A DNA stretch of 14,234 nucleotides from positions 1 to 14,234 of the forward strand of contig DATEAK010000276.1 in NCBI GenBank assembly GCA_035288405.1. The letters are read 5' to 3'. The stretch's first letter is position 1. Every line of letters starts with the position of its first letter. Of this stretch, positions 2,324-14,118 are shown in pieces. Under the pieces are notes generated by a model, which did no database searches, was not told the origin of the DNA, and saw nothing but the letters and a program-made list of their open reading frames with translations. Origin of the DNA: a bacterium (GTDB lineage Bacteria > JACPSX01). The position numbers and the translations under genes are program-made.

Positions 2324-2452
2324 CTGTTCTTGTATGGGAAAGCGAGTTTCGAGTTTAATCTTCTTGGCGCTGGATTGTAAACGGAAAAATTCAATGCCCC
2401 AACCCTATCCCAGAGGGAGAGGGAGAATCCATGTCCTGTCAAAATACGAGTC

Positions 2453-2526
2453 ATGGCCGCGGGCTCCTTGCGGTGGCATTTGTCGCAGTTCTCCTGGACG
2501 TTGTGGCCACCGAAACGGCGGCACAT
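2453..2526 (-). pseudogene. relic duplicate of the 3' end of the multihaem cytochrome gene (…GGHNVQENCDKCHRKEPAAM…)
   Basis: Nucleotides 2453-2526 are ~79% identical to 4139-4201, the 3' end of the cytochrome at 4106-4678, in the same orientation. Translation MCRRFGGHNVQENCDKCHRKEPAAM parallels ACASCHNTQENCQKCHRKQPTAM. A GGAGGAACT-ATG lies at 2526, but the downstream reading frame is low-complexity and runs into the IclR start region. It sits inside spurious track ORF 2224..2733. Confidence 0.4.
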
Positions 2527-2558
2527 AGTTCCTCCGCGGAAGGCCGCGGTAATCAGCC

Positions 2559-2587
2559 TTGACATTGCGCGGGCAAGGAAATAGAGT
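2559..2587 (+). promoter_or_regulatory. sigma70-like promoter candidate TTGACA-N17-TAGAGT upstream of the nucleotidyltransferase gene
   Basis: TTGACA at 2559-2564, a 17-nt spacer, then TAGAGT at 2582-2587, ~95 nt upstream of the 2684 start on the same strand. Sequence match only. Confidence 0.3.
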
Positions 2588-2683
2588 TGTTTCAAAGGAT
2601 TATGTTCGCGGATTGTTCCTGGTTGGAATGTGGGAACCGACGGCTGCGGGAATCGTGTTGGGAAGTGATCATCACTACGGGGG

Positions 2684-3037
2684 ATGCTTGTTGTGGCAAG
2701 ATCCAGGCAAGTGAAGAGTAGCCGGCCTCTCAAAGGGATTCTTCGGGAGCTTGCGCAGGCACTAAAAGACCGATACGGGGAGAAATTTGTGGGTCTCTGG
2801 CTCTATGGATCCCAGGCCCGCGGTCAGGCCCACGACCAATCAGACGTCGACCTTTTGTTGCTCCTGCGGGGAGAAGTCCGACCCTCAAAAGAAATTGACC
2901 GGATTGCCGACCTGCTGGCCGATTTTAACCTGCGGTACGGAGAACTCCTGTCGGTTCTCCCTGTACATGAGCAGACTTTCAAGAACGGCGACGGCCCTTT
3001 CTGGCGCAACGTGCGCCGGGAAGGCAAGGCCGCATGA
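2684..3037 (+). CDS. MntA-like minimal nucleotidyltransferase (Pol-beta superfamily), toxin-antitoxin-associated type
   Basis: Motif GSQARGQAHDQSDVDLLLLL matches the G-S-x(n)-D-x-D nucleotidyltransferase signature. Size is ~115 aa. The ATG at 2684 has a poor SD; GTG at 2693 preceded by GGGGGA is an alternative start. The stop overlaps the next gene as ATGA. Confidence 0.75.
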   Translation: MLVVARSRQVKSSRPLKGILRELAQALKDRYGEKFVGLWLYGSQARGQAHDQSDVDLLLLLRGEVRPSKEIDRIADLLADFNLRYGELLSVLPVHEQTFKNGDGPFWRNVRREGKAA

Positions 3038-3444
3038 TTGAACGGGAAGGCTTGATCCACAAGGCCCGGCGCTTCCTAATGAAGAAAGTACCGCCTAACG
3101 GAGCCCGGAGGAAAGATAACGGGATGCGTGCCGAATATGATTTCGCAGGCGGAATGCGCGGCAAGCACCATCGGGCCATGCAAGCCGGATATACAGTTAC
3201 GATTCATCAGGCGGATGGTACATCCGTCACTGAGGAGGTAAGACCTAAGGAAGGCGTAGTCATCCTAGCGCCAGATGTACGGGAGTACTTCCCGGACGCT
3301 GAGTCGGTGAACACAGCTTTGCGCTTGCTCATTAGGCTCATTCCTGACGAGCGTACCTCCGCTGCGAAAAGGGCGAAGAGTCGCGACGCGAGACGCCCGG
3401 ATGCCTTCCCCGGTGGCCGGAAATCGACCACGAAGAGGAGATAA
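3034..3444 (+). CDS. DUF4415/BrnA-like putative antitoxin-type protein
   Basis: The M-R-A-EYDF-AGG-M-RGK-H motif and …VVILAPDVREYFPDAESVNTALRLLIRL resemble the eYDFskakrGk / …v.irLd.dvleyf….iN.aLr… pattern of BrnA/DUF4415 proteins. The ATG at 3034 overlaps the upstream stop as ATGA. An internal ATG at 3124 (GGAGGA 11 nt upstream) would give a more typical ~106-aa product. No HEPN Rx4-6H motif is present, so it is not a HepT partner. Confidence 0.45.
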   Translation: MIEREGLIHKARRFLMKKVPPNGARRKDNGMRAEYDFAGGMRGKHHRAMQAGYTVTIHQADGTSVTEEVRPKEGVVILAPDVREYFPDAESVNTALRLLIRLIPDERTSAAKRAKSRDARRPDAFPGGRKSTTKRR

Positions 3445-3522
3445 GGGTAAATTGACTTCCGACTTATTTTCCAGGTCCAGGGGCTGGGTCAAAGGCCCTC
3501 GGTGAGATAGTGGAGGAGGACA

Positions 3523-3762
3523 ATGCCGAAGATTGAGGTAAACGAGGAGCAAATTCTGATTGCCCTGGAGCAGCTTTCTCCGGCGGCCAGACGGGTCGCA
3601 CTCGGCAAGCTGATTGGCGGCCTGGAAAGGCTCGACCGTCTGGTGGACCGAAACCGGGAAAAGATCGAGAGCATCTGTCGCGACCGAGGACTGGACTTTT
3701 CCCGACTCACGGAAGAAGAGCGCGAGGCACTGGTGGATGAGATTCTCCATACAGGTGCCTAG
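3523..3762 (+). CDS. small helical protein, putative antitoxin of the downstream PIN remnant
   Basis: Strong SD GGAGGAGGA directly before the ATG at 3523. The 79-aa product is charged, coiled-coil-like and has no TM. Its stop TAG at 3760-3762 is immediately followed by the GTG of the PIN fragment. Confidence 0.45.
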   Translation: MPKIEVNEEQILIALEQLSPAARRVALGKLIGGLERLDRLVDRNREKIESICRDRGLDFSRLTEEEREALVDEILHTGA

Positions 3763-3933
3763 GTGAAGGTTGTCCTGGACACCAACATCAATAAATTCCT
3801 CGAAACAGCTCAGGTCTCCGGCGCCACTTATATTATCTCTGGCGATCACCACCTTCTGAGTCTGGGAACATTTGCTAACATTTCTGTGATTCGAGCCCGC
3901 GCCTTTCTTGACACACTTGGTCCCAACGAGTAG
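3763..3933 (+). pseudogene. PIN-domain toxin remnant with in-frame internal deletion
   Basis: Starting from the GTG: VKVVLDTNI|NKFLETAQVSGATYIISGDHHLLSLGTFANISVIRARAFL…*. The N-terminal vvlDTN strand is fused directly to the C-terminal DNKFLE…A.YlvTgDkdLL……iltP.eFl segment of PIN_3-type toxins. About 80 central residues, including the catalytic acidic residues, are missing. At 56 aa it is below the track threshold. Confidence 0.5.
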
Positions 3934-4105
3934 AGGTTGCACAGAAGTATTTGCGGGTTCTTGATAAACTGGTGCGGGCGTACGGTCGGGCAAACCTGTC
4001 CATAACCGTCGATGGTGGAAAGTTTCGACAGTGAAACACCTTCCCTTTGGCCTCTTTCCTGGGGCAGGAGGAAAGGCTTCAGGAAAAGCAGACGGGTGAA
4101 GCGGT

Positions 4106-4678
4106 CTAGCTCGCTGATTTGTTCCCGGCTGCCGGGGCCATGGCTGTGGGCTGCTTGCGGTGACACTTCTGGCAGTTTTCCTGGGTATTGTGGCAGCTTG
4201 CACATGCCTCCATGGAAGGCCGGTTCGTCGGTGTGATGCGGGCGTCGTGGGCGATGTTCACGTGACATTGCACGCAGGCGACTCCCATGTCGCCGGCGTG
4301 AAGCTTGTGAGGAATCTTGATCCCCTACACGTTGACTCGCATGATTCTGGGCTCGCCGTTTCCCACTTCCTTGTGGCAACTGCGGCACTTCTTGTCCACG
4401 TCACCGGGATCCGCTGAGAAGCTCTGCGGGAAACCTTGAGCAATGGGAAACTTGGCCTTGCCGTGGCAGCCGATGCAGGGAATTTTGGAGGTGTGCCCTG
4501 TAGCGGAGACTGCAAGAGGTGTGGCCCCCTGACCGTGGCAGGTCAGGCAAAAGCTCGGATTGCCGGAGGAGTAGCGGATCAGAGACAGAGTTCCCACGAT
4601 ACTGAGAACGATCGCAGCCACGCCTCCTAGGAGGATGGGGCCGCGCCAGCGATGAGGGATGCGGATCCCGGGATTCAT
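4106..4678 (-). CDS. membrane-anchored NapC/NirT/NrfH-like multihaem cytochrome c (six CxxCH), interrupted by an in-frame TAG at 4325-4327
   Basis: Track ORFs 4325..4678 and 4106..4288 are in the same frame, separated by a single TAG (4327-4325) plus 12 sense codons (…RIMRVNV*GIKIPHKLHAGDMGVACVQCH…). There is an N-terminal TM helix, an SFCLTCH first-haem motif typical of NapC/NrfH, and then CIGCH, CRSCH | CVQCH, CASCH, CQKCH. SD GGAGGAAAACAATA precedes the ATG at 4678. There is no SD before the internal Met at 4288. Confidence 0.75.
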
Positions 4679-4692
4679 TATTGTTTTCCTCC

Positions 4693-6951
4693 TTACACCT
4701 TGGCTACTTCGACTTCAGTTTCCATCCAGGCGTATTCCTGGCTCACCGGATCTTCCTTTTTCGGAACGATGGCGTTTAGATAAATTCCGCTGCCTTGTCC
4801 CTCCCACCAGACCAGGAGGGTGTCGGGATCACTGCTCTTGAAGCTCTTGCCCCGGGCAATGCGGCCGTGCCCCCAGTGCCCGAAGCCTTCCGCACAGGCC
4901 ACCACCTGAGGGTGAACTCCCTGGCTGATCCGTACTTTCTGCGTGACGGTGCCGTTCGCAGTTTTCAGGCGCACCTGATCCCCCTCCCGCACATGCAGAG
5001 CTGCGGCGGTTTCAGGATGGAGCCACAGGGGGTTGTCATGCTGGATCTCGGCGAGCCACTTGCAGGCCGCGGTGCGAGACCCTCCGCGCACGGTGCCCTT
5101 GAAAGTGGCGAGCATGAGCCGGCCGTTCGTGCGCCCGTTTTTTTCGGGCTCATAGCTCGGCAATCCTGCGAATCCCTGGCGGTGCATGGCCTCGGAGTAA
5201 ACTTCAAAGCGGCGAGAGGCGGTCTTGAACCCTTTTCCCCGATACTGCCGGAATCGGGGCTTTGCTTTTTCGTTAAACCATACCCCTTTTTTCTTGAGGG
5301 CTTCAAACCCTCCGGCCCCGGCCAGTCCGTCGATCTTCGGGGCCACCTTTTCCAGGTAGTCTTCAAAACTCCGGTAGGGGAAGAACGGTTCGACTCCGGG
5401 GATTCGGCGCGCCAGATCCAGGCACACCTCGGTAAATGGTTTTACCTTGGGGGGAGGCGTGACGAGGGGTTGCCGCAAACTCACGTACGGTACGTGTTCG
5501 AAGCTGGGGCCTGACTCCAGATCCCAACGCTCGAGATAGGTGGCGTCGGGCAGGACCAAGTCGCACAAGATTGCGGTCTCGCTCATGAAGGTGTCCACTG
5601 CCACCGAGTAGGGAATGAGCCGCTCGTCCTTGAAGACTTGAGTGATGGACCCCGAGTCCGGGGAAGCGTAAACGGGGTTGGCGGTGTAGGCCAGGTAAAT
5701 TCCAACTTTGATTTTTCGGCGGGCAATGTCCGAGAACAGGTTGTTGTGGTGGAAGGGAGAAGCCTGGCTTACCTTGGGAGGCACCGGTGTCAGGTCCGGG
5801 ATCGCAGCTCGCCGAGGGAAACAGGGACCGCCGGGCACGTCGACGTTTCCGATCACGGCGTTCAGAAGCGCAACGCAGCGCTCGTTCTGTGTTCCCTGCT
5901 GCCGCATGGAAACTCCGCGACCCGTGAGTGTGGTCGCCGGCTTCGTGGTTGCAAACTCGCGGGCCAGCCTCCGGATCACTGCTGCCGGCACCCCGCTTAC
6001 CTTCTGGGCGGCTTCGGGCGTGTAGGGATCCAGGTGGCGGCGCATGTGAACCAGGGGGAAGTTCGTCCACTCTTCTAGAAACTGCCGGTCGTGGAGTCCT
6101 TCCTCGATGATGGTGCGGGCCATGGCCATGGCCACGAACCCGTCCGTTCCCGGAGTGATCGGGTACCACTCATCGCTGCGCCCCGAGGTGTTCGAGATGC
6201 GCACGTCGAAGGTGACCAGGCGGGCGCCGTTCATGCGAGCCTCGTTGAGGCGCTGGATGAGAGGCAGATGGAAGAGATAGGCCTCGTAAGGATTGCCGCC
6301 GAAGTTGAGGATGTATTTGCTACGGGAGATGTCGGGAATCAGCACATCCTCGCCGTAGGTGAGAAGAGAGGCTGTCTCCCGACTGGCGCCGCCCAGGGAA
6401 GTCTCCAGTGTGTCCGAGGAAGTTCCATAGGCATGCAGGAAGCGCCGCACGAAGTTCAGCGTGGCGTTCTCCTTGGACTTGAAGTTTCCCTGGAAGATGA
6501 AGCGGTCCGCCTGTCCTTTCGCCTTGAGCTCCTGCAGCTTGGTCGAGAGTTCCTGAATCGCCTGATCCCAGGAGATCTGTTCCCAGCGCATCTCCCCGCG
6601 CTTGCCCGTGCGCTTGAGGGGGAACAGGAGGCGATCCGGATTGTTCACCAGGTTGGTGCCCGCCTGGCCCCGGGCGCAGAGTTTGCCCCGATTATTGGGA
6701 TGCAGGGGATTACCCTCGATTTTCACCAGCCGCCCTGAGTTAGTATCCACGTAACCCAGGATGCCGCAGCCTGCCGCGCACTGAAAGCAGGTACTGGGGA
6801 TGGCGACCCGGGCTTTGCCGGTGGTACGTGATACTTCCTCTCCTCCCGGTTTGAGCTCCTGGCCGAGACCGGGCAGGGGAAGCATCTCCCCCAGGGCCAG
6901 AATTCCCGCCCCGCCGATTCCAAACTTAAGAAACCTTCTGCGATCAATCAT
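4693..6951 (-). CDS. Tat-exported molybdopterin (bis-MGD) oxidoreductase catalytic subunit, PsrA/PhsA/TtrA family
   Basis: N-terminal twin-arginine signal MIDRRRFLKFGIGGAGILALG. FS0 [4Fe-4S] motif CFQCAAGCGI…(27)…C. The 752-aa length matches PhsA/PsrA. Its start lies 2 nt after the SPFH stop (TAACGATG). Confidence 0.9.
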   Translation of the reverse strand: MIDRRRFLKFGIGGAGILALGEMLPLPGLGQELKPGGEEVSRTTGKARVAIPSTCFQCAAGCGILGYVDTNSGRLVKIEGNPLHPNNRGKLCARGQAGTNLVNNPDRLLFPLKRTGKRGEMRWEQISWDQAIQELSTKLQELKAKGQADRFIFQGNFKSKENATLNFVRRFLHAYGTSSDTLETSLGGASRETASLLTYGEDVLIPDISRSKYILNFGGNPYEAYLFHLPLIQRLNEARMNGARLVTFDVRISNTSGRSDEWYPITPGTDGFVAMAMARTIIEEGLHDRQFLEEWTNFPLVHMRRHLDPYTPEAAQKVSGVPAAVIRRLAREFATTKPATTLTGRGVSMRQQGTQNERCVALLNAVIGNVDVPGGPCFPRRAAIPDLTPVPPKVSQASPFHHNNLFSDIARRKIKVGIYLAYTANPVYASPDSGSITQVFKDERLIPYSVAVDTFMSETAILCDLVLPDATYLERWDLESGPSFEHVPYVSLRQPLVTPPPKVKPFTEVCLDLARRIPGVEPFFPYRSFEDYLEKVAPKIDGLAGAGGFEALKKKGVWFNEKAKPRFRQYRGKGFKTASRRFEVYSEAMHRQGFAGLPSYEPEKNGRTNGRLMLATFKGTVRGGSRTAACKWLAEIQHDNPLWLHPETAAALHVREGDQVRLKTANGTVTQKVRISQGVHPQVVACAEGFGHWGHGRIARGKSFKSSDPDTLLVWWEGQGSGIYLNAIVPKKEDPVSQEYAWMETEVEVAKV

Positions 6952-6953
6952 CG

Positions 6954-7952
6954 TTATTCACTCGCTGAATGGCTGCCGTTGGCGTCCGGCTTTTCACCGT
7001 TGCCGCTGTTGCTGTTCGTAATCTTGTTGAGCGCGGTCACGCCCATGAGAGCTCCCAGCCCCATGGTTTCGACGGCCGAGCTCGGTACGATGACCATGGA
7101 GCCCCTCTCCTTGAGGCCTTCGTAGAGCATGTTCATGGCTCGCAGGTGAAGGGCCGTGGGATTATCCTTGTAGGATTCGGCTGCCTCGGCGAACATCTGG
7201 GCAATCTGAGTCTCCGATCGTCCGAGGATCACTCGGGCCTGACGCTCTCTCTCTGCCTGGGCCTGGATCGACAGGGCGTCCTGGAGAGAGGCCGGGATGA
7301 TCACGTCCCGGATCTCCACGGAAAGAACCTGAAGGCCCCAGCCGTCGGTGCGCTTGTCAATGAGGTTCTTGATCTGCTCGTCGATATTCTCACGCCCCAC
7401 GAGCATATCGGAGAGCTCGCTCTTGCCGATCACATCCCGCAGAGCCGTCTGGGATGCCCAGCTGATCACGTCGTAGTAGTCGGTGACTTCCAGTGCCGCT
7501 TTTTCAGGGTTGACGACTTTCCAGAAGCAGACGGCGTCCACGTCTACGGGGACGTTGTCTTTGGTCAAGGTTTCCTCGGCCCGGAAGCCGGTAGCGGTTA
7601 GCCGCAGGTCGATCCAGTAGGGAATCGTGTCAATCAGGGGGAAGATGAAAAAGAGGCCCGGGCCCGCCATCCTATGGAATTTCCCCAAGCGCAGGACGAT
7701 GGCGCGCTCCCACTGAGTCGCGACCTTCAGAGCCAGAAGGATAAACACGCCCACCGCCAGCAGAATCCCAGTAGGAATCGGGTTGTTTGTCAGGACGAAG
7801 GCCCCTACTCCGAACAGGGCGCACGCCACAAACAAGGTGGCCGAGAGGAGATTCGGGCGCAGCGTACCGGCCCGGATCTTCTGGGCCTCGAACTCATCCT
7901 GCTGTCTTTTGGCGGCGCGCCGGATCTCTTGCTTGGTACTCGGTTCCATCAT
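6954..7952 (-). CDS. SPFH/band-7 (stomatin/HflKC-like) membrane protein
   Basis: One N-terminal TM followed by the characteristic ATQWERAIVLRLGKF…GPGLFFIFPLID SPFH core and a coiled-coil Q/E/R-rich region. Strong SD AAGGAGGAA sits 4-5 nt before ATGATG at 7952. It lies between the NrfD and catalytic-subunit genes. Confidence 0.85.
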   Translation of the reverse strand: MMEPSTKQEIRRAAKRQQDEFEAQKIRAGTLRPNLLSATLFVACALFGVGAFVLTNNPIPTGILLAVGVFILLALKVATQWERAIVLRLGKFHRMAGPGLFFIFPLIDTIPYWIDLRLTATGFRAEETLTKDNVPVDVDAVCFWKVVNPEKAALEVTDYYDVISWASQTALRDVIGKSELSDMLVGRENIDEQIKNLIDKRTDGWGLQVLSVEIRDVIIPASLQDALSIQAQAERERQARVILGRSETQIAQMFAEAAESYKDNPTALHLRAMNMLYEGLKERGSMVIVPSSAVETMGLGALMGVTALNKITNSNSGNGEKPDANGSHSASE

Positions 7953-7979: not shown

Positions 7980-8879
7980 TTAGTGTTGGGGAATTGCCTG
8001 TCCGCCGATTACCATGGTGTAGCGCATCGCGAAGATTCCGAGCATGACTAGAACCGAGGCCACCGAGATCCCAAAGGGGGTCCGGGTGATGCGGTTGCTC
8101 AAGAGGGCAAGGGGGACCAGCGCCCCCAGGAGGATCTCTCCTCCCAGGAAGATATTTCGGAAGGCCCCTGTGAGGATGAGTTGTGCGGCCTCGTACGCTT
8201 CGTCGTGGGAGTTCAAGAGGACGAGAATGTCCGTGCCGATCAGGGAGAGATCCGCAACGATGGATACGATCAGCATGACCACCAGGCCGTTGATGAGGTC
8301 CATGTTAATCTTGCGCTCGGCGCTGAAGAATTTGTCCCGGGCGATTGCGATCAGAATCATCATGGCGATTCCGGAAACCATGGCCGAAGCCAGAAAGATG
8401 AAGGGCATCAACGCCGTGTTCCACAAAATGCGCGCCTTGGCCAGAGCCAGGATGAACCCCGTGTAGCCGTGCACCGACAGGGCGAGCGGGATGCCGATCA
8501 AGCCGAAGATCTTTGTGAGCTTGGCTTTTCCCATAAACATGAAAGTTCCGTAGATCATGCAGTTGATCGGGTACAGGGTGAGAAGAAACGAACCGTAAGA
8601 AATGGCCGAAGTTGGGTTGATGTAGTAGAAGAGTTCCCAGAAGCGCCAGGGCTGCTCCAGGTCGATCATCAAGTTCAAGGGCGCCACGATAAGGAGCAGG
8701 ATAGCCACGACGACGCCGATCTTCCCCAGGGGCTTGTAGCGGATCATGCCGAAGCCGTAAGCCAGTGTGGACAGGATGAAGGAACCGGCGCTGAGTCCCG
8801 TGAGATAGAAATAAACGGCAATGGGGATCCCCAGAGCCTCTCCGTAAGCGACGTTGTAAATGGTCGTAACTTCAGTCAT
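7980..8879 (-). CDS. NrfD/PsrC-family polytopic membrane quinol-interacting anchor subunit
   Basis: 299 aa, ~8 hydrophobic helices, typical NrfD/PsrC composition. The start ATG is 1 nt after the FeS-subunit stop (TAAGATG), with AGAGGAAG SD. Confidence 0.9.
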   Translation of the reverse strand: MTEVTTIYNVAYGEALGIPIAVYFYLTGLSAGSFILSTLAYGFGMIRYKPLGKIGVVVAILLLIVAPLNLMIDLEQPWRFWELFYYINPTSAISYGSFLLTLYPINCMIYGTFMFMGKAKLTKIFGLIGIPLALSVHGYTGFILALAKARILWNTALMPFIFLASAMVSGIAMMILIAIARDKFFSAERKINMDLINGLVVMLIVSIVADLSLIGTDILVLLNSHDEAYEAAQLILTGAFRNIFLGGEILLGALVPLALLSNRITRTPFGISVASVLVMLGIFAMRYTMVIGGQAIPQH

Positions 8880-8880
8880 C

Positions 8881-9486
8881 TTAGGCTTCCTCTACCCTTG
8901 TTTTGGCGGCCATCTCATCGAGGCCGATATAGAAAACTCGGGGCTCGGTCCCCTTCTCGGGCTTGAGAACCTGGATTGCGTTGGTGGCGATGAGACGGGA
9001 GATTTCGCTTTCGGGGTCGTTCACGTCTCCAAACACGCGGGCCCCGCCGGGACAGGTGTTGACACAAGACGGCACCAGCCCGGCGTCCACCCGGTGAAAG
9101 CAGAAGGTGCATTTCTGCACGATTTTCTTGACGGGGTTCACGTGCCGGGCGTCGTAAGGACAGGCGGCCATGCAATACTTGCAGCCGATGCAGCGGTGCT
9201 CGTCGATCATGACGATGCCGTCGGGCCTGCGGTAGGTCGCTTTCACGGGGCACACGCTCAGGCAAGCGGGACGCTCGCAGTTGTTGCACAGGCTGGGGAT
9301 GAAGACACGCCGTACGTTGGGGTAAGACCCTTTCTCTACGGTCTTGACCCAGGTCCGGTAGACTCCGAGGGGAACATCGTTTTCACTCTTGCAGGCAACG
9401 GCGCAGGAGTGACAGCCCAGGCAGCGCCTCAAGTCAATGAGCATGGCGTAGCGTTTGCTTTTTTTTTGGGAACCATTCCCTTTCAC
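8881..9486 (-). CDS. PsrB/TtrB/NrfC-like four-cluster [4Fe-4S] electron-transfer subunit
   Basis: Four ferredoxin-type motifs: CLGCHSCAVACKSEN, CNNCERPACLSVCP, CIGCKYCMAACP, CTFCFHRVDAGLVPSCVNTCP. Conserved KRYAMLIDLRRCLGC N-terminus. GTG start. No Tat motif, so it is presumably a hitchhiker on the catalytic subunit. Confidence 0.9.
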   Translation of the reverse strand: MKGNGSQKKSKRYAMLIDLRRCLGCHSCAVACKSENDVPLGVYRTWVKTVEKGSYPNVRRVFIPSLCNNCERPACLSVCPVKATYRRPDGIVMIDEHRCIGCKYCMAACPYDARHVNPVKKIVQKCTFCFHRVDAGLVPSCVNTCPGGARVFGDVNDPESEISRLIATNAIQVLKPEKGTEPRVFYIGLDEMAAKTRVEEA

Positions 9487-9637: not shown

Positions 9638-10054
9638 TTACCCTGAGTTCGGGGGGGTGCCCTCAGAGGAAAAGAATTGCTGTACCGTCCTGAGCCCGAT
9701 GAGGAGAGGAGTGGGCTCGGAGGACGCTGCGGGATCGAGGTTCTTCTCTGGGTCGAACCTCTCCAGGGATCTGTTGACGAGATGTTTGGTGATGGCTCCC
9801 ACGGCCAGCGCTACTAGAGAGCCTACGGCCAGCCAGAAGAGGCAGGCCACGGCCACTGCGAGGGCCATGCCGCCGACTACGAAGAGGGTGACGACTCCGC
9901 GCTCCGGCAGGGGAGAACCCATGATACTCACTGCCGAGATCAAGCCGAAAGAGCCCCCATAAAATATTCCCCAGGGAACTCCCACGAACAGAAAAACTGC
10001 GGCACCGGCAACAGCGCCGACTTTCAGTTGGAGTCGCAGTGCTCGTCGTGTCAT
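9638..10054 (-). CDS. hypothetical ~3-TM membrane protein with proline-rich soluble C-tail
   Basis: 138 aa. Three hydrophobic segments (AVAGAAVFLFVGVPWGIFYGG / FGLISAVSIMG / VVTLFVVGGMALAVAVACLFWLAVGSLVALAVGAI). Its start is 9 nt downstream of the receiver-gene stop. I recognise no family. Confidence 0.55.
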   Translation of the reverse strand: MTRRALRLQLKVGAVAGAAVFLFVGVPWGIFYGGSFGLISAVSIMGSPLPERGVVTLFVVGGMALAVAVACLFWLAVGSLVALAVGAITKHLVNRSLERFDPEKNLDPAASSEPTPLLIGLRTVQQFFSSEGTPPNSG

Positions 10055-10063
10055 GGCCCTCTC

Positions 10064-10495
10064 CTATTTTTGTACGCCCCCCTCCAGGGCCCGCAAAATC
10101 TGCCGCGGCTGGAAGGGCTCGAGAAAGCAAGGGAAGAAATCGACTTGCTCTCTTTCGCCACCGCAAAGCTCCGACTCATCTCCCACGGTTAGAATCACTC
10201 TGACCCCGGGATTGAGTCGGCGCACGATGGAAGCCACTTCGTATCCGGAAAGATCCCGAAGCTTCCCCTTGATGATGACTGCGTCCACCCCTCCGTTGAG
10301 CACCATGGAGACGGCCTTTCGGCCCTGGCGGGTTCGGGAAACCCGGTAGCCTTCCTCCTCGAGGAAATCCGTAAGGGACTCGCACTGGTCCTGTTCGTCG
10401 TGAACGAGAAGAATGCGCCGAACCTCGGGCCTTTCCGTGTCTCCGTTGCCCCTGGAGAAGAACTTTTTCCCAAGGAGATCCATCAATCCGTTCAT
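10064..10495 (-). CDS. stand-alone CheY-like receiver-domain protein with degenerate active site (pseudo-receiver)
   Basis: Track ORF is 10064..10546 with a GTG start. That start overlaps the sigma54 promoter, so the likely start is the ATG at 10495 (M18), with AGAGGAAC SD 7 nt upstream. The receiver fold is conserved (RRILLVHDE…T in RVILTVGD). However, the phospho-acceptor position reads VIIK (Lys) and the β5 Lys position reads CFLEPF (Glu). Confidence 0.7.
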   Translation of the reverse strand: MNGLMDLLGKKFFSRGNGDTERPEVRRILLVHDEQDQCESLTDFLEEEGYRVSRTRQGRKAVSMVLNGGVDAVIIKGKLRDLSGYEVASIVRRLNPGVRVILTVGDESELCGGEREQVDFFPCFLEPFQPRQILRALEGGVQK

Positions 10496-10529
10496 CGGTG
10501 GTTCCTCTGTTAGTGTTGCCATGGAGAAG

Positions 10530-10546
10530 TGCAGGTTGTGTGCCAC
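10530..10546 (-). promoter_or_regulatory. sigma54 (RpoN) -24/-12 promoter TGGCAC-N5-CTGCA for the oxidoreductase operon
   Basis: The minus strand reads G-TGGCAC-ACAAC-CTGCA (plus 10530-10546 tgcaggttgtgtgccac). This is one mismatch from TGGCAC-N5-TTGCA. It lies ~35 nt upstream of the proposed receiver start and downstream of an NtrC-type activator gene. Confidence 0.5.
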
Positions 10547-10784: not shown

Positions 10785-12167
10785 TCATTCTTTAATGTCT
10801 TTCTGGCTCTCCTCAATCTTGCGCCAGAGGGTCACGGTGCTGATTCCGAGGATCTCAGAAGCCTTTTTGCGGTTCCAGCGGGTGGCCTGCAGAACTTCCA
10901 AAATGTAGTCTTGCTCGATCTTCTTGAGGGAAGGGTATTGATCAACCCCCTTGGCGTCATTTATAGCAACAGATGAGGCGGGTACCGCTTCGCTGTTGAG
11001 CTGGCTGAAGCTGTCTATGGTGATTATCTCTGCTTCGGTGAGGATCACGGCGCGCTCGACGGCGTTTTCCAGCTCCCGGACATTTCCAGGCCACGGGTAG
11101 CTCTCCAGGAGAGCACGAGCTCCAGGGGTGAACCCCCTCACCCGTTTCTTCAAATCCGCGTTATACTTCGCGAGAAAGTAGTCGGCCAGCAGAGGAATAT
11201 CTCCCGGTCGTTCACGCAAGGGAGGAAGCATGATCGGCATCACATTCAGCCGGTAGTAGAGATCCTCGCGAAAGGTGCCGCGGCGGATGGCATCCTTCAG
11301 ATCCCGATTCGTGGCCGCCACGATGCGCACATCTACGAAGACCTTGCGCTCGCTTCCCACGGGCTGGATCTCTCTCTCCTGCAAGGCTCGCATGAGCTTG
11401 GCCTGGAGATCAACGCTCATGTCCCCTACCTCGTCCAGGAACAAAGTTCCGCCGTCGGCGAGCTCGAAGAGCCCTTTCTTACGGCGCAGGGCTCCGGTAA
11501 AGGCGCCCTTCTCATGGCCAAAGAGCTCGCTTTCCAGGAGATCCGCGGGGATGGCGGCGCAATTGACCACCACCAACTGGCCGTTGGCACGGCTGCTCTT
11601 CTGATGAACCTGCCGGGCCACGAGCTCCTTGCCCGTTCCCGTTTCCCCCAGGATCAGCACCGTGGAATCAGTGACGGCCACCTTGTCGATGAGCTGGCAT
11701 ACTTTCTGAATGGGGTCACTCTCGCCGATGATTTTTCCGGCGCTCACGGAACGGCGCAGGGCTTCCTTGAGGGCCCGGTTTTCCTGGAGGAGGTGCTGGC
11801 GCTCCAGGGCATTTTTGATCACCAGGCGCAGCTCGTCGGGGGTGAAGGGCTTGGGAACGTAGTCTACAGCCCCCTCCCGCATGGATTCCACCGCCGTGTC
11901 CACGTCGGCGTAACCCGTGATCATGATGACCGCCAGTTGGGAATCGATTTTGTGAAGGGATCGCAGGAGCTCGATGCCGCTCATCTTGGGCATCTTGATG
12001 TCGGCCACGATGATATCGAAAGCGTCGGTCCGAAAGCGCTCAAGGGCTTCGAAGCCGTTGCTGCAGGTCACGACCTCGTAATTTTCTTTCTTGAGGGCTT
12101 GGGTGCAGGCGTCCCGTGTGTCTTCCTCGTCGTCCACGATCAGGATGCGCTTGCGGGGCAGTTCCAT
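10785..12167 (-). CDS. NtrC-family sigma54-dependent response regulator (receiver + AAA+ + Fis-type HTH)
   Basis: Canonical receiver (ILIVDDEED…IIVADIKMP), Walker A GETGTGKE, the GAFTGA motif, and C-terminal HTH EILGISTVTLWRKI. AAAGGG SD. The gene lies 13 nt downstream of the kinase stop. Confidence 0.92.
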   Translation of the reverse strand: MELPRKRILIVDDEEDTRDACTQALKKENYEVVTCSNGFEALERFRTDAFDIIVADIKMPKMSGIELLRSLHKIDSQLAVIMITGYADVDTAVESMREGAVDYVPKPFTPDELRLVIKNALERQHLLQENRALKEALRRSVSAGKIIGESDPIQKVCQLIDKVAVTDSTVLILGETGTGKELVARQVHQKSSRANGQLVVVNCAAIPADLLESELFGHEKGAFTGALRRKKGLFELADGGTLFLDEVGDMSVDLQAKLMRALQEREIQPVGSERKVFVDVRIVAATNRDLKDAIRRGTFREDLYYRLNVMPIMLPPLRERPGDIPLLADYFLAKYNADLKKRVRGFTPGARALLESYPWPGNVRELENAVERAVILTEAEIITIDSFSQLNSEAVPASSVAINDAKGVDQYPSLKKIEQDYILEVLQATRWNRKKASEILGISTVTLWRKIEESQKDIKE

Positions 12168-12180
12168 AAACCCTTTCCCT

Positions 12181-14118
12181 CTATGCAGACACCGCAGCCA
12201 CGCCGGCCTGCACCGGAAGGCGAAAGATCAGAGCCGTCCCTCCTTCACCGTTGCCGCTCTCAATCCAGATGTTTCCCCCGTGCCTCTGGATGATCCCGTA
12301 ACAGATGGAGAGACCGAGTCCCGTCCCTTTATCTTTGGTCGTGTAAAAGGGCTCGAAAACTTTGGAGTGCAGTGCCTTGGGAATGCCGGGCCCGTTGTCT
12401 TTTACCGTCACAACGACCCAGTCTAGATCGAGTGCCCGGGTAATGACCTCGATCCGTCCTCCGGCATGAAATGCCTGGACGGAGTTCTGCATGACGTTCA
12501 CCAGAACCTGCTGGATCTGACTGCGGTCGCAGATAACCCGGGGAAGATCGGGTTCCAAGTGCAAGTGACACTCTACATTATTAATACGGATCTCGTTGGC
12601 CAAAATGCTATTGGCGGCCAGGACGATCTGATTCATATCGTTGGGTTCCATGTCCGTGTTGGTGCTGCGAGTGTAGTCCAGCAGATCCGAGACGATCTTC
12701 TTGCTGCGCACCACGTTGTCCACGATCTTGCGGATGTTCTTGTAATGAGGATCCTCGGGGGCGGTTTCCTCCAGGACGAGCTTGGAATAGAGGAGGATGT
12801 TTCCCAAGGGATTGTTGATCTCATGAGCCACGCCGGCGGCGAGCTGCCCCGTGGCTGCCAGGCGCTCGGAGTGGATGAGCTGCTTTTGCAGTGATTCCCG
12901 GCTCTTCTCCTCGGTGAGATCGTGGGTAATATCCACATAGGCCAGGGTGTGGTCGTGCTCGTCTCGCAGGCTGCTGATGTTGACAAAAGCAGGGAAAGTT
13001 TTACCGTTCTTGCGCAGAAGCTGAATCTCGCTCCGGTAGGATCCTTCCAGTTCAACGGCATTCCAGACTCGACGCTGCGTCTCTCCCAGGAGGGAGTAAG
13101 GCTCACCGGTTAGTTCCATAGCACCGTAGCCGAGCATCTCCTCGGCGCCGTGACTGAAGAAAAGGATGGTGCCGTTGGGATCTATGACGATGATGGACTC
13201 GCGCACGTTGCCAAGCACCCGCTCCAGGAGTTCCTTTTTGTCCCGAATCTCGATGGAGCGTTTGAGGGCGTCGGCCATCTCGTTGAAGGATTGGGCCAGA
13301 ACTCCGATCTCGTCTTCTCCTTCGCCCAGAACTTTCCTGTCGAAATCCCCCTTGCTGAAGAACTTCGTCAAGTCCACGAGCTTTTTCAGGCGGTTGATCA
13401 CCAGGCGGTTCAACAGGAGACTCAGGACGATGACCGCGGTGATGATCATGAGTCCCATGGAGTAGAGAACCTCTCTGAATTTCGTGGCGATTTGCTTCTC
13501 AATGTCGGTCATGGAGAAGTCGGTGATGAGGACCCCGTTGATCTTGGTCAGGGGACTGTGACAGCCGTAGCACTCGGGTTCGTTGAAGATGGGGTTCACG
13601 TTGCGGAAGATTTGCTCGCCGTTCTCTTCCTTATATATGACGGTCTTGTTACGCACTTCGGGGCTATACCGGTGGCAGATCTGGCAGGTGTAATCGTTCT
13701 GATTGAGGATCTCACCGACCCGTCTCATCTCCGGGGACATCTTGATCTCCCCGCGCTTGTCCACCAGGAAAATGTTGTCTACCCCCTTCTGCTTGCCGAC
13801 GGTTTCGATGATGTAGCGGGCCTCCTCCAGATCGCGGTTGATCATGGCGTGCTTGAGGCTCCCCTTGATGACGTCGCTTAAGTAATGGGTGCTGGAATCC
13901 CGCAGGTTTTCGATGAGGTCGTGGCGAAAGCGGAACACCTGGTAGCTGTAGAAGACCGACATGATGGCCACGATGGCCACCACGATCCCCACAGTTGCCT
14001 TGAAGCGTAAGCTTTGATGAAACCTCTTGATCCTCAAAGGCCAACCTATGGATGCAGAACGAACTTCGAACGGTTGACCCCTCCCAATGGGGAATACATG
14101 TAGTCTCTTTGGGGACAA
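12181..14118 (-). CDS. sensor histidine kinase: TM, periplasmic domain with two c-type haem motifs, TM, HAMP, PAS, HisKA, HATPase_c
   Basis: TM1 ATVGIVVAIVAIMSVFYSY. ~160-aa periplasmic region containing CQICH (13686-13672) and CYGCH (13572-13558). TM2 VLYSMGLMIITAVIVLSLLL. Then HAMP, PAS, the H-box AAGVAHEINNPL, and N/G1/G2 boxes (DNGPGIP…GTGLGLSI). The track start at 14118 is TTG; the true start is uncertain. Confidence 0.9.
   Translation of the reverse strand: MSPKRLHVFPIGRGQPFEVRSASIGWPLRIKRFHQSLRFKATVGIVVAIVAIMSVFYSYQVFRFRHDLIENLRDSSTHYLSDVIKGSLKHAMINRDLEEARYIIETVGKQKGVDNIFLVDKRGEIKMSPEMRRVGEILNQNDYTCQICHRYSPEVRNKTVIYKEENGEQIFRNVNPIFNEPECYGCHSPLTKINGVLITDFSMTDIEKQIATKFREVLYSMGLMIITAVIVLSLLLNRLVINRLKKLVDLTKFFSKGDFDRKVLGEGEDEIGVLAQSFNEMADALKRSIEIRDKKELLERVLGNVRESIIVIDPNGTILFFSHGAEEMLGYGAMELTGEPYSLLGETQRRVWNAVELEGSYRSEIQLLRKNGKTFPAFVNISSLRDEHDHTLAYVDITHDLTEEKSRESLQKQLIHSERLAATGQLAAGVAHEINNPLGNILLYSKLVLEETAPEDPHYKNIRKIVDNVVRSKKIVSDLLDYTRSTNTDMEPNDMNQIVLAANSILANEIRINNVECHLHLEPDLPRVICDRSQIQQVLVNVMQNSVQAFHAGGRIEVITRALDLDWVVVTVKDNGPGIPKALHSKVFEPFYTTKDKGTGLGLSICYGIIQRHGGNIWIESGNGEGGTALIFRLPVQAGVAAVSA

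Follow-up and report, generated by a model that had tools for sequence, protein, structure and literature searches.

A contig-private in-frame TAG in the gene of a NapC/NrfH-related hexahaem cytochrome encoded beside NrfD, FeS and MopB subunits

An in-frame TAG interrupts the gene of a hexahaem c-type cytochrome in the 14,234-nucleotide stretch of bacterial DNA analysed here in full (the window; GenBank contig DATEAK010000276.1, assembly GCA_035288405.1). This TAG is a one-letter change private to the contig, either a knock-out mutation or an assembly error, and it does not represent recoding of the genetic code. The probability that it is a recent and real null allele, created by a C-to-T change that turned Gln118 into an amber codon, is put at roughly 0.6. 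As far as the stop is concerned the result is ordinary: one candidate for stop-codon recoding is removed, and a gene of a metagenome-assembled genome (MAG) is flagged as a null allele or a base error. The module to which the cytochrome belongs is more interesting than the stop codon.

The cytochrome gene occupies positions 4106–4678 on the minus strand and is 190 codons long with a TAG stop codon. Translated from 4678 to 4106, it gives 190 sense positions, one internal stop and the terminal TAG. The internal stop is codon 118 (4325–4327), and the lesion is a C-to-T change on the coding strand, i.e. G-to-A at plus-strand position 4327. Six CxxCH motifs are found at residues 44 (CLTCH), 68 (CIGCH), 98 (CRSCH), 135 (CVQCH), 159 (CASCH) and 169 (CQKCH), three before the internal stop and three after it. 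The initial annotation of this DNA had reported the TAG at 4327–4325, the six motifs and a tightly spaced pair among them; the first two are borne out by the minus-strand translation, and the pair is present as CASCHNTQENCQKCH. Its description of the N-terminus as NapC/NrfH-type (a transmembrane (TM) helix and SFCLTCH) also holds, as do its other descriptive statements. A stretch of positive charges is followed by a hydrophobic helix of ~22 residues (approximately residues 13–35) and then by SFCLTCH, so that the single TM helix has the first CxxCH directly behind it (RWRGPILLGGVAAIVLSIVGTLSLIRYSSGNPSFCLTCH). In the AlphaFold2 model, this part is a helix spanning residues 9–38 with pLDDT values of 73–94. 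The model was computed from a 31-sequence alignment (pLDDT 72.7); another, computed from a 7-sequence alignment (pLDDT 41), was discarded.

Initiation of the gene is well defined. A Shine-Dalgarno sequence, GGAGG (AGGAGG), at 4688–4692 of the minus strand lies right behind the TAA stop (4695–4693) of the preceding MopB gene and 9–13 nt 5' of the ATG at 4678 (the 25 nt upstream are CCAAGGTGTAAGGAGGAAAACAATA). The reading frame that is open in this contig (4325–4678, minus strand) codes for 117 residues comprising the signal-anchor TM helix and haem sites 1–3. This product is found at NCBI as HLC26947.1 (P0003), deposited as 'MAG TPA: hypothetical protein VJM80_09270 [bacterium]', and the record comes from a single contig. 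The stranded C-terminal 72 codons (4106–4324, minus strand) carry haem sites 4–6, a c7/ActA-like trihaem unit, and have no signal peptide. The first ATG past the internal stop is 13 codons downstream (codon 131, 4288), and no Shine-Dalgarno-like sequence precedes it, as the initial annotation had noted; codons 136 and 140, both GTG, likewise have none in front of them.

Intact forms of the gene are found in other contigs. Protein P0008 shares 189 of 190 positions with the window protein, and its source contigs belong to three different ENA assemblies (L004, ERZ28563641; L005, ERZ4903125; L006, ERZ27254842). Over the 611 nt corresponding to window positions 4090–4700, all three are identical to the window save at 4327, where they carry C (CAG) and not T (TAG). 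Codon 118 is also CAG in L001 and in the JGI contig L003, which brings the related contigs with CAG (Gln) to five, and it is AGG in L002. Gln118 is present in every full-length member of the 90% identity cluster, and Arg, Leu or Asn takes its place in more distant orthologues (Leu or Asn in P0004 and P0005). In the alignment of 31 family members, position 118 is freely variable and lies just N-terminal of a conserved I-x-I-P-H-x-x-H motif. The alignment of orthologues that the initial annotation had proposed thus gives sense codons (CAG and AGG) and residues Q, R, L and N, and natural termination at the position of the TAG, which it had named as an observation that would speak against it, is displayed by none of the orthologues.

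The frame on both sides of the stop belongs to one protein. Full-length relatives retrieved in the protein search are 188–198 residues long, uninterrupted and equipped with six CxxCH motifs. Because the N- and C-terminal halves of the window sequence both align end to end with single proteins of 188–198 residues from other assemblies, the two halves are one gene and not a chance reading. No orthologue that ends or restarts at position 118 was found among those aligned. In intact relatives, the half that follows the stop is under purifying selection (omega of 0.17 for L001, 0.51 for L007 and 0.25 for L002), and both halves of the orthologues have omega values under 1. The TAG allele, on the other hand, was seen exactly once, in this contig: a scan of JGI for either allele returned a single contig, with CAG, and left the TAG allele without independent confirmation.

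In its intact form the gene encodes a periplasmic cytochrome c of 190 residues that is exported by Sec, is anchored in the membrane and binds six haems covalently. In the window allele, translation would end after residue 117, producing the TM helix with haems 1–3, and the product would lack haems 4–6 as well as the conserved His124, His127 and His144. The conserved non-motif histidines are probably distal ligands. Because haems 4–6 and three of the four conserved non-motif histidines would be lost, the truncated 117-residue product is probably misfolded and inactive. The 72 downstream codons are not expected to be rescued as a separate protein, having neither a ribosome-binding site nor a signal sequence, and only background near-cognate readthrough of UAG could give the full-length protein, at a trace level. 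Background misreading of UAG in E. coli mostly inserts Gln, which in this gene would restore the wild-type sequence. No polar effect of the stop is expected, because the cytochrome gene is the last in its operon; beyond it lie ~1.5 kb of unrelated plus-strand genes. The annotation of the deposited product should read disrupted 190-residue cytochrome and not 117-residue hypothetical protein.

The other private alleles of the contig bear on the choice between a mutation and an error. Across the stretch covered by four to five related contigs there are five window-private alleles, and all those other than the stop are in the adjacent MopB gene, where the changes at 4705, 4717 and 5950 are synonymous and the one at 5342 (V537A) is conservative. 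The contig has accumulated ~0.2% of private change, and its composition (three synonymous and one conservative SNP) suggests a genuine lineage with divergence filtered by selection rather than random error. A single lesion set against intact and selected orthologues, with no secondary decay, is the profile expected of a young nonsense-mutated gene, and this is the profile found. The lack of any other difference from the intact allele in 611 nt agrees with a recent mutation, but an error would look equally so. A rough estimate that combines the synonymous divergence with our own approximate figure for the share of random substitutions that make stops (~4–5%) suggests that a real nonsense change is a few-fold to tens-of-fold likelier than a stop from consensus error. 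Such a null allele may have gone to fixation in the strain, or the assembler may have picked up a variant. Counting against a fixed mutation are the missing secondary decay, the single occurrence of the allele and the price, as losing the cytochrome subunit of an otherwise intact and selected operon should be costly.

It is possible, though on the improbable side, that the organism really has CAG and an intact gene, and that the T at 4327 arose as an artefact in the consensus of a metagenome-assembled contig through low coverage, a strain mixture or a damaged base. C-to-T is the typical deamination or damage error, the 611 nt are otherwise 100% identical to three CAG-bearing contigs, both the TAG allele and the 117-residue product are confined to one contig, and this contig comes from a third-party-annotated MAG. 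Such an artefact has to be reconciled with the rarity of substitutions in a short-read consensus, of which, by the same rough figure, only ~4–5% would make a stop, with private differences that look selected and not noisy, and with the absence of frameshifts or other lesions across the 11 kb shared with L001. A recent null allele is thus the reading preferred here. The initial annotation had listed four explanations, two of which, a sequencing or assembly error and a recent inactivating mutation, survive, whereas stop-codon readthrough or recoding and a genuinely split gene do not. Reading of the TAG as pyrrolysine, or its efficient programmed readthrough, would yield the full-length six-haem protein, and the frame does stay open and homologous past the TAG; the next base is G, and TAG-G is possibly a weak termination context. 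But the position is unconserved (Q, R, L, N and others), and since contigs with identical flanks have CAG at this variable position, no co-evolved recoding signal can exist. TAG is also an ordinary terminator here: it ends three of the 13 genes in the window, including the cytochrome gene, and it ends the orthologues of this gene likewise. Recoding, which we regard as very improbable, is rejected on the strength of the CAG alleles, the variable position and the usual role of TAG.

Other searches for signals were negative. A tRNA scan of the window found none, an Rfam search of the window at gathering thresholds found no element, and a promoter and terminator scan of 3400–4800 found nothing relevant to recoding or reinitiation. 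To our knowledge, no known Pyl protein family is involved here. The likeness to the Pyl methylamine methyltransferases is limited to an in-frame TAG behind which the frame stays open; unlike in Pyl-recoded genes, the TAG of the window is unconserved, falls on a variable site and is replaced by CAG in otherwise identical contigs. A split gene, in which 117 residues and another ~60–72 residues made by termination-reinitiation assemble into one cytochrome, is barely credible. The haem motifs are intact in both halves, but no split orthologue was found, neither a Shine-Dalgarno sequence nor a start codon is near the stop (the first ATG being the one 13 codons on), and the second half, without a signal peptide, would have no way into the periplasm. 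In cytochrome c maturation, haem is attached covalently there, and an export signal is needed. A conserved split gene is therefore rejected, as the orthologues are unsplit and the downstream fragment has no start or export signal.

The cytochrome gene is also an allelic mosaic. Of 41 differences from L001, 27 are concentrated in a patch of 226 nt (4145–4370, 12%), and the other 14 are spread over the remaining 6.9 kb. L003 shares this patch, diverges again in the 5' half of the gene (4499–4606) and is window-like between these two regions. Pseudogene decay was considered as the cause of the 4145–4370 patch and rejected, since L004–L006 carry the haplotype of the window with CAG. Because these CAG contigs share the haplotype and L003 is differently mosaic, the patch is attributed to allelic recombination among strains and is unrelated to the TAG.

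A degenerate second copy of the equivalent of the last 56 nt of the cytochrome gene (HNVQENCDKCHRKEPAAM; 2452–2507, minus strand) lies 1.6 kb downstream of the real end of the gene, with 80% identity over 56 nt. The remnant region 2452–2594 (minus strand) is homologous to positions 17305–17447 of L007, a Tectomicrobia MAG, in which the remnant lies ~6.8 kb downstream of the gene end and continues to a stop codon of its own. The intervening DNA varies in content and length: it contains a nucleotidyltransferase gene and a 136-residue ORF in the window and about nine small genes in L007. The arrangement resembles a variable island bordered by a direct repeat that derives from the 3' end of the cytochrome gene. 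The nucleotidyltransferase-domain ORF (PF01909; 2684–3037, plus strand) overlaps the 136-residue ORF (3034–3444, plus strand), which has no Pfam hit, by 4 nt. This pair is toxin-antitoxin-like, lies inside the island on the strand opposite to the cytochrome gene and is also found in L004 and L005.

The initial annotation had contrasted the six haems with the usual four. The count is true but no oddity, because a sizeable family has six haems as its conserved state. When 1.84 billion representatives were searched with a profile, 1,513 relatives came up at E ≤ 1e-3, and the number at E ≤ 1e-30 was 50. Their common module, which consists of a TM helix, the motif YTTxNPxFCLxCH and six CxxCH, is either stand-alone (160–200 residues) or forms the N-terminal part of proteins with 7–21 haems. 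In 31 stand-alone members, the six CxxCH motifs and His144 are invariant, and His62, His124 and His127 are nearly invariant. The window protein passes the Pfam thresholds of Cytochrome_C7 and Cytochrom_c3_2 only. Its scores for PF03264 (NapC/NirT; 21.1–21.8 bits against 24.1) and TIGR03153 (NrfH; 37 against 134.2, residues 17–76, E = 3e-9) are below the respective cut-offs, and PF03264 is matched by 29 of the 31 family members at E ≤ 0.01. The family profile aligns with NrfH (2j7a chain C) over ~137 positions with E = 9.3e-13, a match at the level of homology that spans the TM helix, haems 1–2 and haem 4. The CxxCHxM motif, which supplies the Met ligand of haem 1 in NrfH, is missing (CLTCHGQ in the window versus CTSCHIM in NrfH). 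Residues ~118–175 (haems 4–6) score 32.9 for Cytochrome_C7 (cut-off 24.8) and, with the family profile, match 3ov0 at E = 1.5e-19; for this C-terminal trihaem unit, the best single-family PDB sequence hits are to ActA (E = 1.6e-5). Judged from these alignments, the cytochrome is best described as a distant hexahaem relative of NapC/NrfH in which haems 1–4 are NrfH-like and haems 4–6 are c7/ActA-like. The six-haem NrfH-related module is a widespread and uncharacterised family, regularly accompanied by NrfD, FeS and MopB subunits, of which the MopB has no Mo ligand.

The genes upstream of the cytochrome gene include the NrfD-type module named in the initial annotation, and all are on the minus strand: a four-cluster FeS subunit (TtrB/DsrO/NrfC-like; 8881–9486) and an NrfD/PsrC-type integral membrane quinone-interacting subunit (7980–8879), both identified with Pfam and NCBIfam, an SPFH/Band 7 membrane protein (6954–7952) and MopB, a molybdopterin-oxidoreductase-family subunit with a twin-arginine signal and an FS0 Cys motif (4693–6951). 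The order FeS–NrfD–(SPFH)–MopB–cytochrome recurs in L001, in L007/L012 (Ca. Tectomicrobia, GCA_016193065.1), in L009 and L010, and in L013–L016, four Actinomycetota MAGs in which the identity of the cytochrome is only 31–40%. In L011, the cytochrome gene is 5' of the FeS gene. The SPFH/Band 7 gene (stomatin/HflK-like) between NrfD and MopB is inside the operon and is kept in L001, L007 and L009; it is absent from the otherwise syntenic L010 and L013–L016.

Farther upstream, a 138-residue hydrophobic protein without a family hit (9638–10054, minus strand) is encoded between the genes for the receiver and the FeS subunit. L001 and L007 have conserved counterparts, and L009 has a 381-residue multihaem cytochrome in its place. 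The operon is preceded by a set of regulators. A histidine kinase (12181–14118, minus strand) contains two CxxCH motifs (13672–13686 and 13558–13572; residues 145 and 183) in the loop that joins its two TM segments; HAMP, PAS, HisKA and HATPase domains come after these segments, and the protein is probably a haem-c redox sensor. It is accompanied by a sigma-54 activator (12167..10785) and a stand-alone receiver (10546..10064), and the same set is found 5' of the operon in L007.

The peculiarity of the MopB subunit is the residue at the metal site. The Mo-ligating Cys173 of PsrA (2vpw) is replaced by Gly187 (6391–6393) in the window protein (SLGGASRE versus SLCTAPRE), and in each of nine orthologues (L001, L002, L007/L012, L009, L010, L013–L016) this segment is without Cys and without a Ser or Asp that would be conserved. 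The window protein and its orthologues nevertheless retain the FS0 Cys motif and the TAT signal. The best matches of the MopB are PhsA (340.5 bits, cut-off 694) and T. thermophilus PsrA (2vpw, E = 1.8e-65). The replacement suggests that the protein may be either cofactor-less, as in Qrc and alternative complex III (ACIII), or ligand-less, as in arsenite oxidase.

QrcABCD, a quinone reductase complex of sulfate reducers, combines a cytochrome c with six haems (QrcA), a MopB-family protein that carries no cofactors (QrcB), a four-cluster FeS subunit and an NrfD-like membrane protein (PMC8076601, PMC13059093). The presence of an NrfD together with a membrane-anchored multihaem cytochrome is normal in Qrc and ACIII, and in both complexes quinone is handled by the NrfD-like subunit alone (PMC8076601, PMC13059093). 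The initial annotation had counted two different quinol-interacting subunits in the operon. The NrfD is indeed present, but such a function is not established for the cytochrome, given that Qrc and ACIII pair a quinone-handling NrfD-like subunit with a multihaem cytochrome. Since a MopB without the Mo-ligating Cys makes the module Qrc/ACIII-like, NrfD plus a membrane cytochrome is not anomalous. The subunit composition matches that of Qrc and, more loosely, that of ACIII, from which we infer that electrons would enter or leave a Qrc/ACIII-like quinone-coupled complex through the intact cytochrome subunit. Like QrcA and ActA, this subunit would carry them between the quinone module formed by FeS and NrfD and partners in the periplasm.

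That the cytochrome is itself a second quinol dehydrogenase of the NrfH/CymA kind, acting beside or instead of NrfD, appears unlikely. The TM helix and first haem are NrfH-like (the TIGR03153 match at residues 17–76, E = 3e-9), and NrfH is matched by the family profile over ~137 positions (E = 9.3e-13), but the scores remain under the curated NapC/NrfH thresholds and the haem-1 CxxCHxM is missing (CLTCHGQ). Nap operons with both NapC and NapGH demonstrate that two quinol modules can coexist; the gene studied here, however, always adjoins an NrfD/FeS pair that already offers a quinone site. The hexahaem module heads proteins with 8–21 haems, as in the quinol-oxidising multihaem cytochromes of metal reducers (PMC9686372), yet the C-terminal half of the window protein resembles ActA, which is not a quinol binder.

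With the cytochrome as an electron entry or exit subunit, the proposed module comprises an NrfCD-type quinone part, a TAT-exported MopB without a Mo ligand, which would be a scaffold or have a non-canonical site as in Qrc and ACIII, an NrfH-derived hexahaem cytochrome and, often, an SPFH protein, and it is conserved from Ca. Tectomicrobia to Actinomycetota. The literature on a complex of such composition yielded only reviews of Qrc and ACIII and unrelated genomes. Tentatively, the operon might be an undescribed respiratory module that functions as a cytochrome c:quinone oxidoreductase rather than as a Psr-type reductase. If the complex works in the manner of Qrc or ACIII, quinone–cytochrome c coupling of this type would extend to soil and groundwater phyla without cultured members.

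Like NrfH, NapC and CymA, the cytochrome has a single N-terminal TM helix with the first CxxCH at once behind it. Those proteins are tetrahaem quinol dehydrogenases of the NapC/NirT family and go with NrfA or NapAB, whereas the window cytochrome has six haems and a c7-like C-terminal extension, lacks CxxCHxM, scores below the curated thresholds and is encoded beside a MopB/FeS/NrfD set. Cytochrome c7 (PpcA) and the polymerised c7 units of GSU1996 (3ov0) match haems 4–6, but both are soluble periplasmic proteins, and the c7-like unit of the window is fused to an NrfH-like membrane-anchored N-terminal part. The likeness to the polysulfide and thiosulfate reductases PsrABC and PhsABC comprises the MopB match, the TAT signal, the FS0 motif and the PsrB/PsrC-type partners; it is offset by the change of Cys173 to Gly, a score below half of the PhsA cut-off and an extra cytochrome subunit.

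Two further analogies are with complexes in which a multihaem cytochrome accompanies an NrfD-like subunit. ActA of ACIII (6btm, 6f0k, 6lod, 8k9e) likewise provides an NrfD/FeS/MopB-like complex with a multihaem c subunit anchored in the membrane. Unlike the window protein, ActA has five haems; ActB is a fusion in ACIII, which contains ActD–F in addition, and the similarity to the window protein covers only ~50 residues. All four subunit types of QrcABCD are encoded in the window, and the window MopB is without the Mo-ligating residue. However, the genes stand in another order, with an SPFH gene inserted in the operon, the MopB keeps its FS0 Cys motif and the NrfD is shorter (299 residues). The scores fall below the equivalog thresholds for QrcB (196.6 against 440), QrcC (128.7 against 400) and QrcD (34 against 570), with no match to QrcA, and the window module is therefore an analogue of Qrc and not a member of it.
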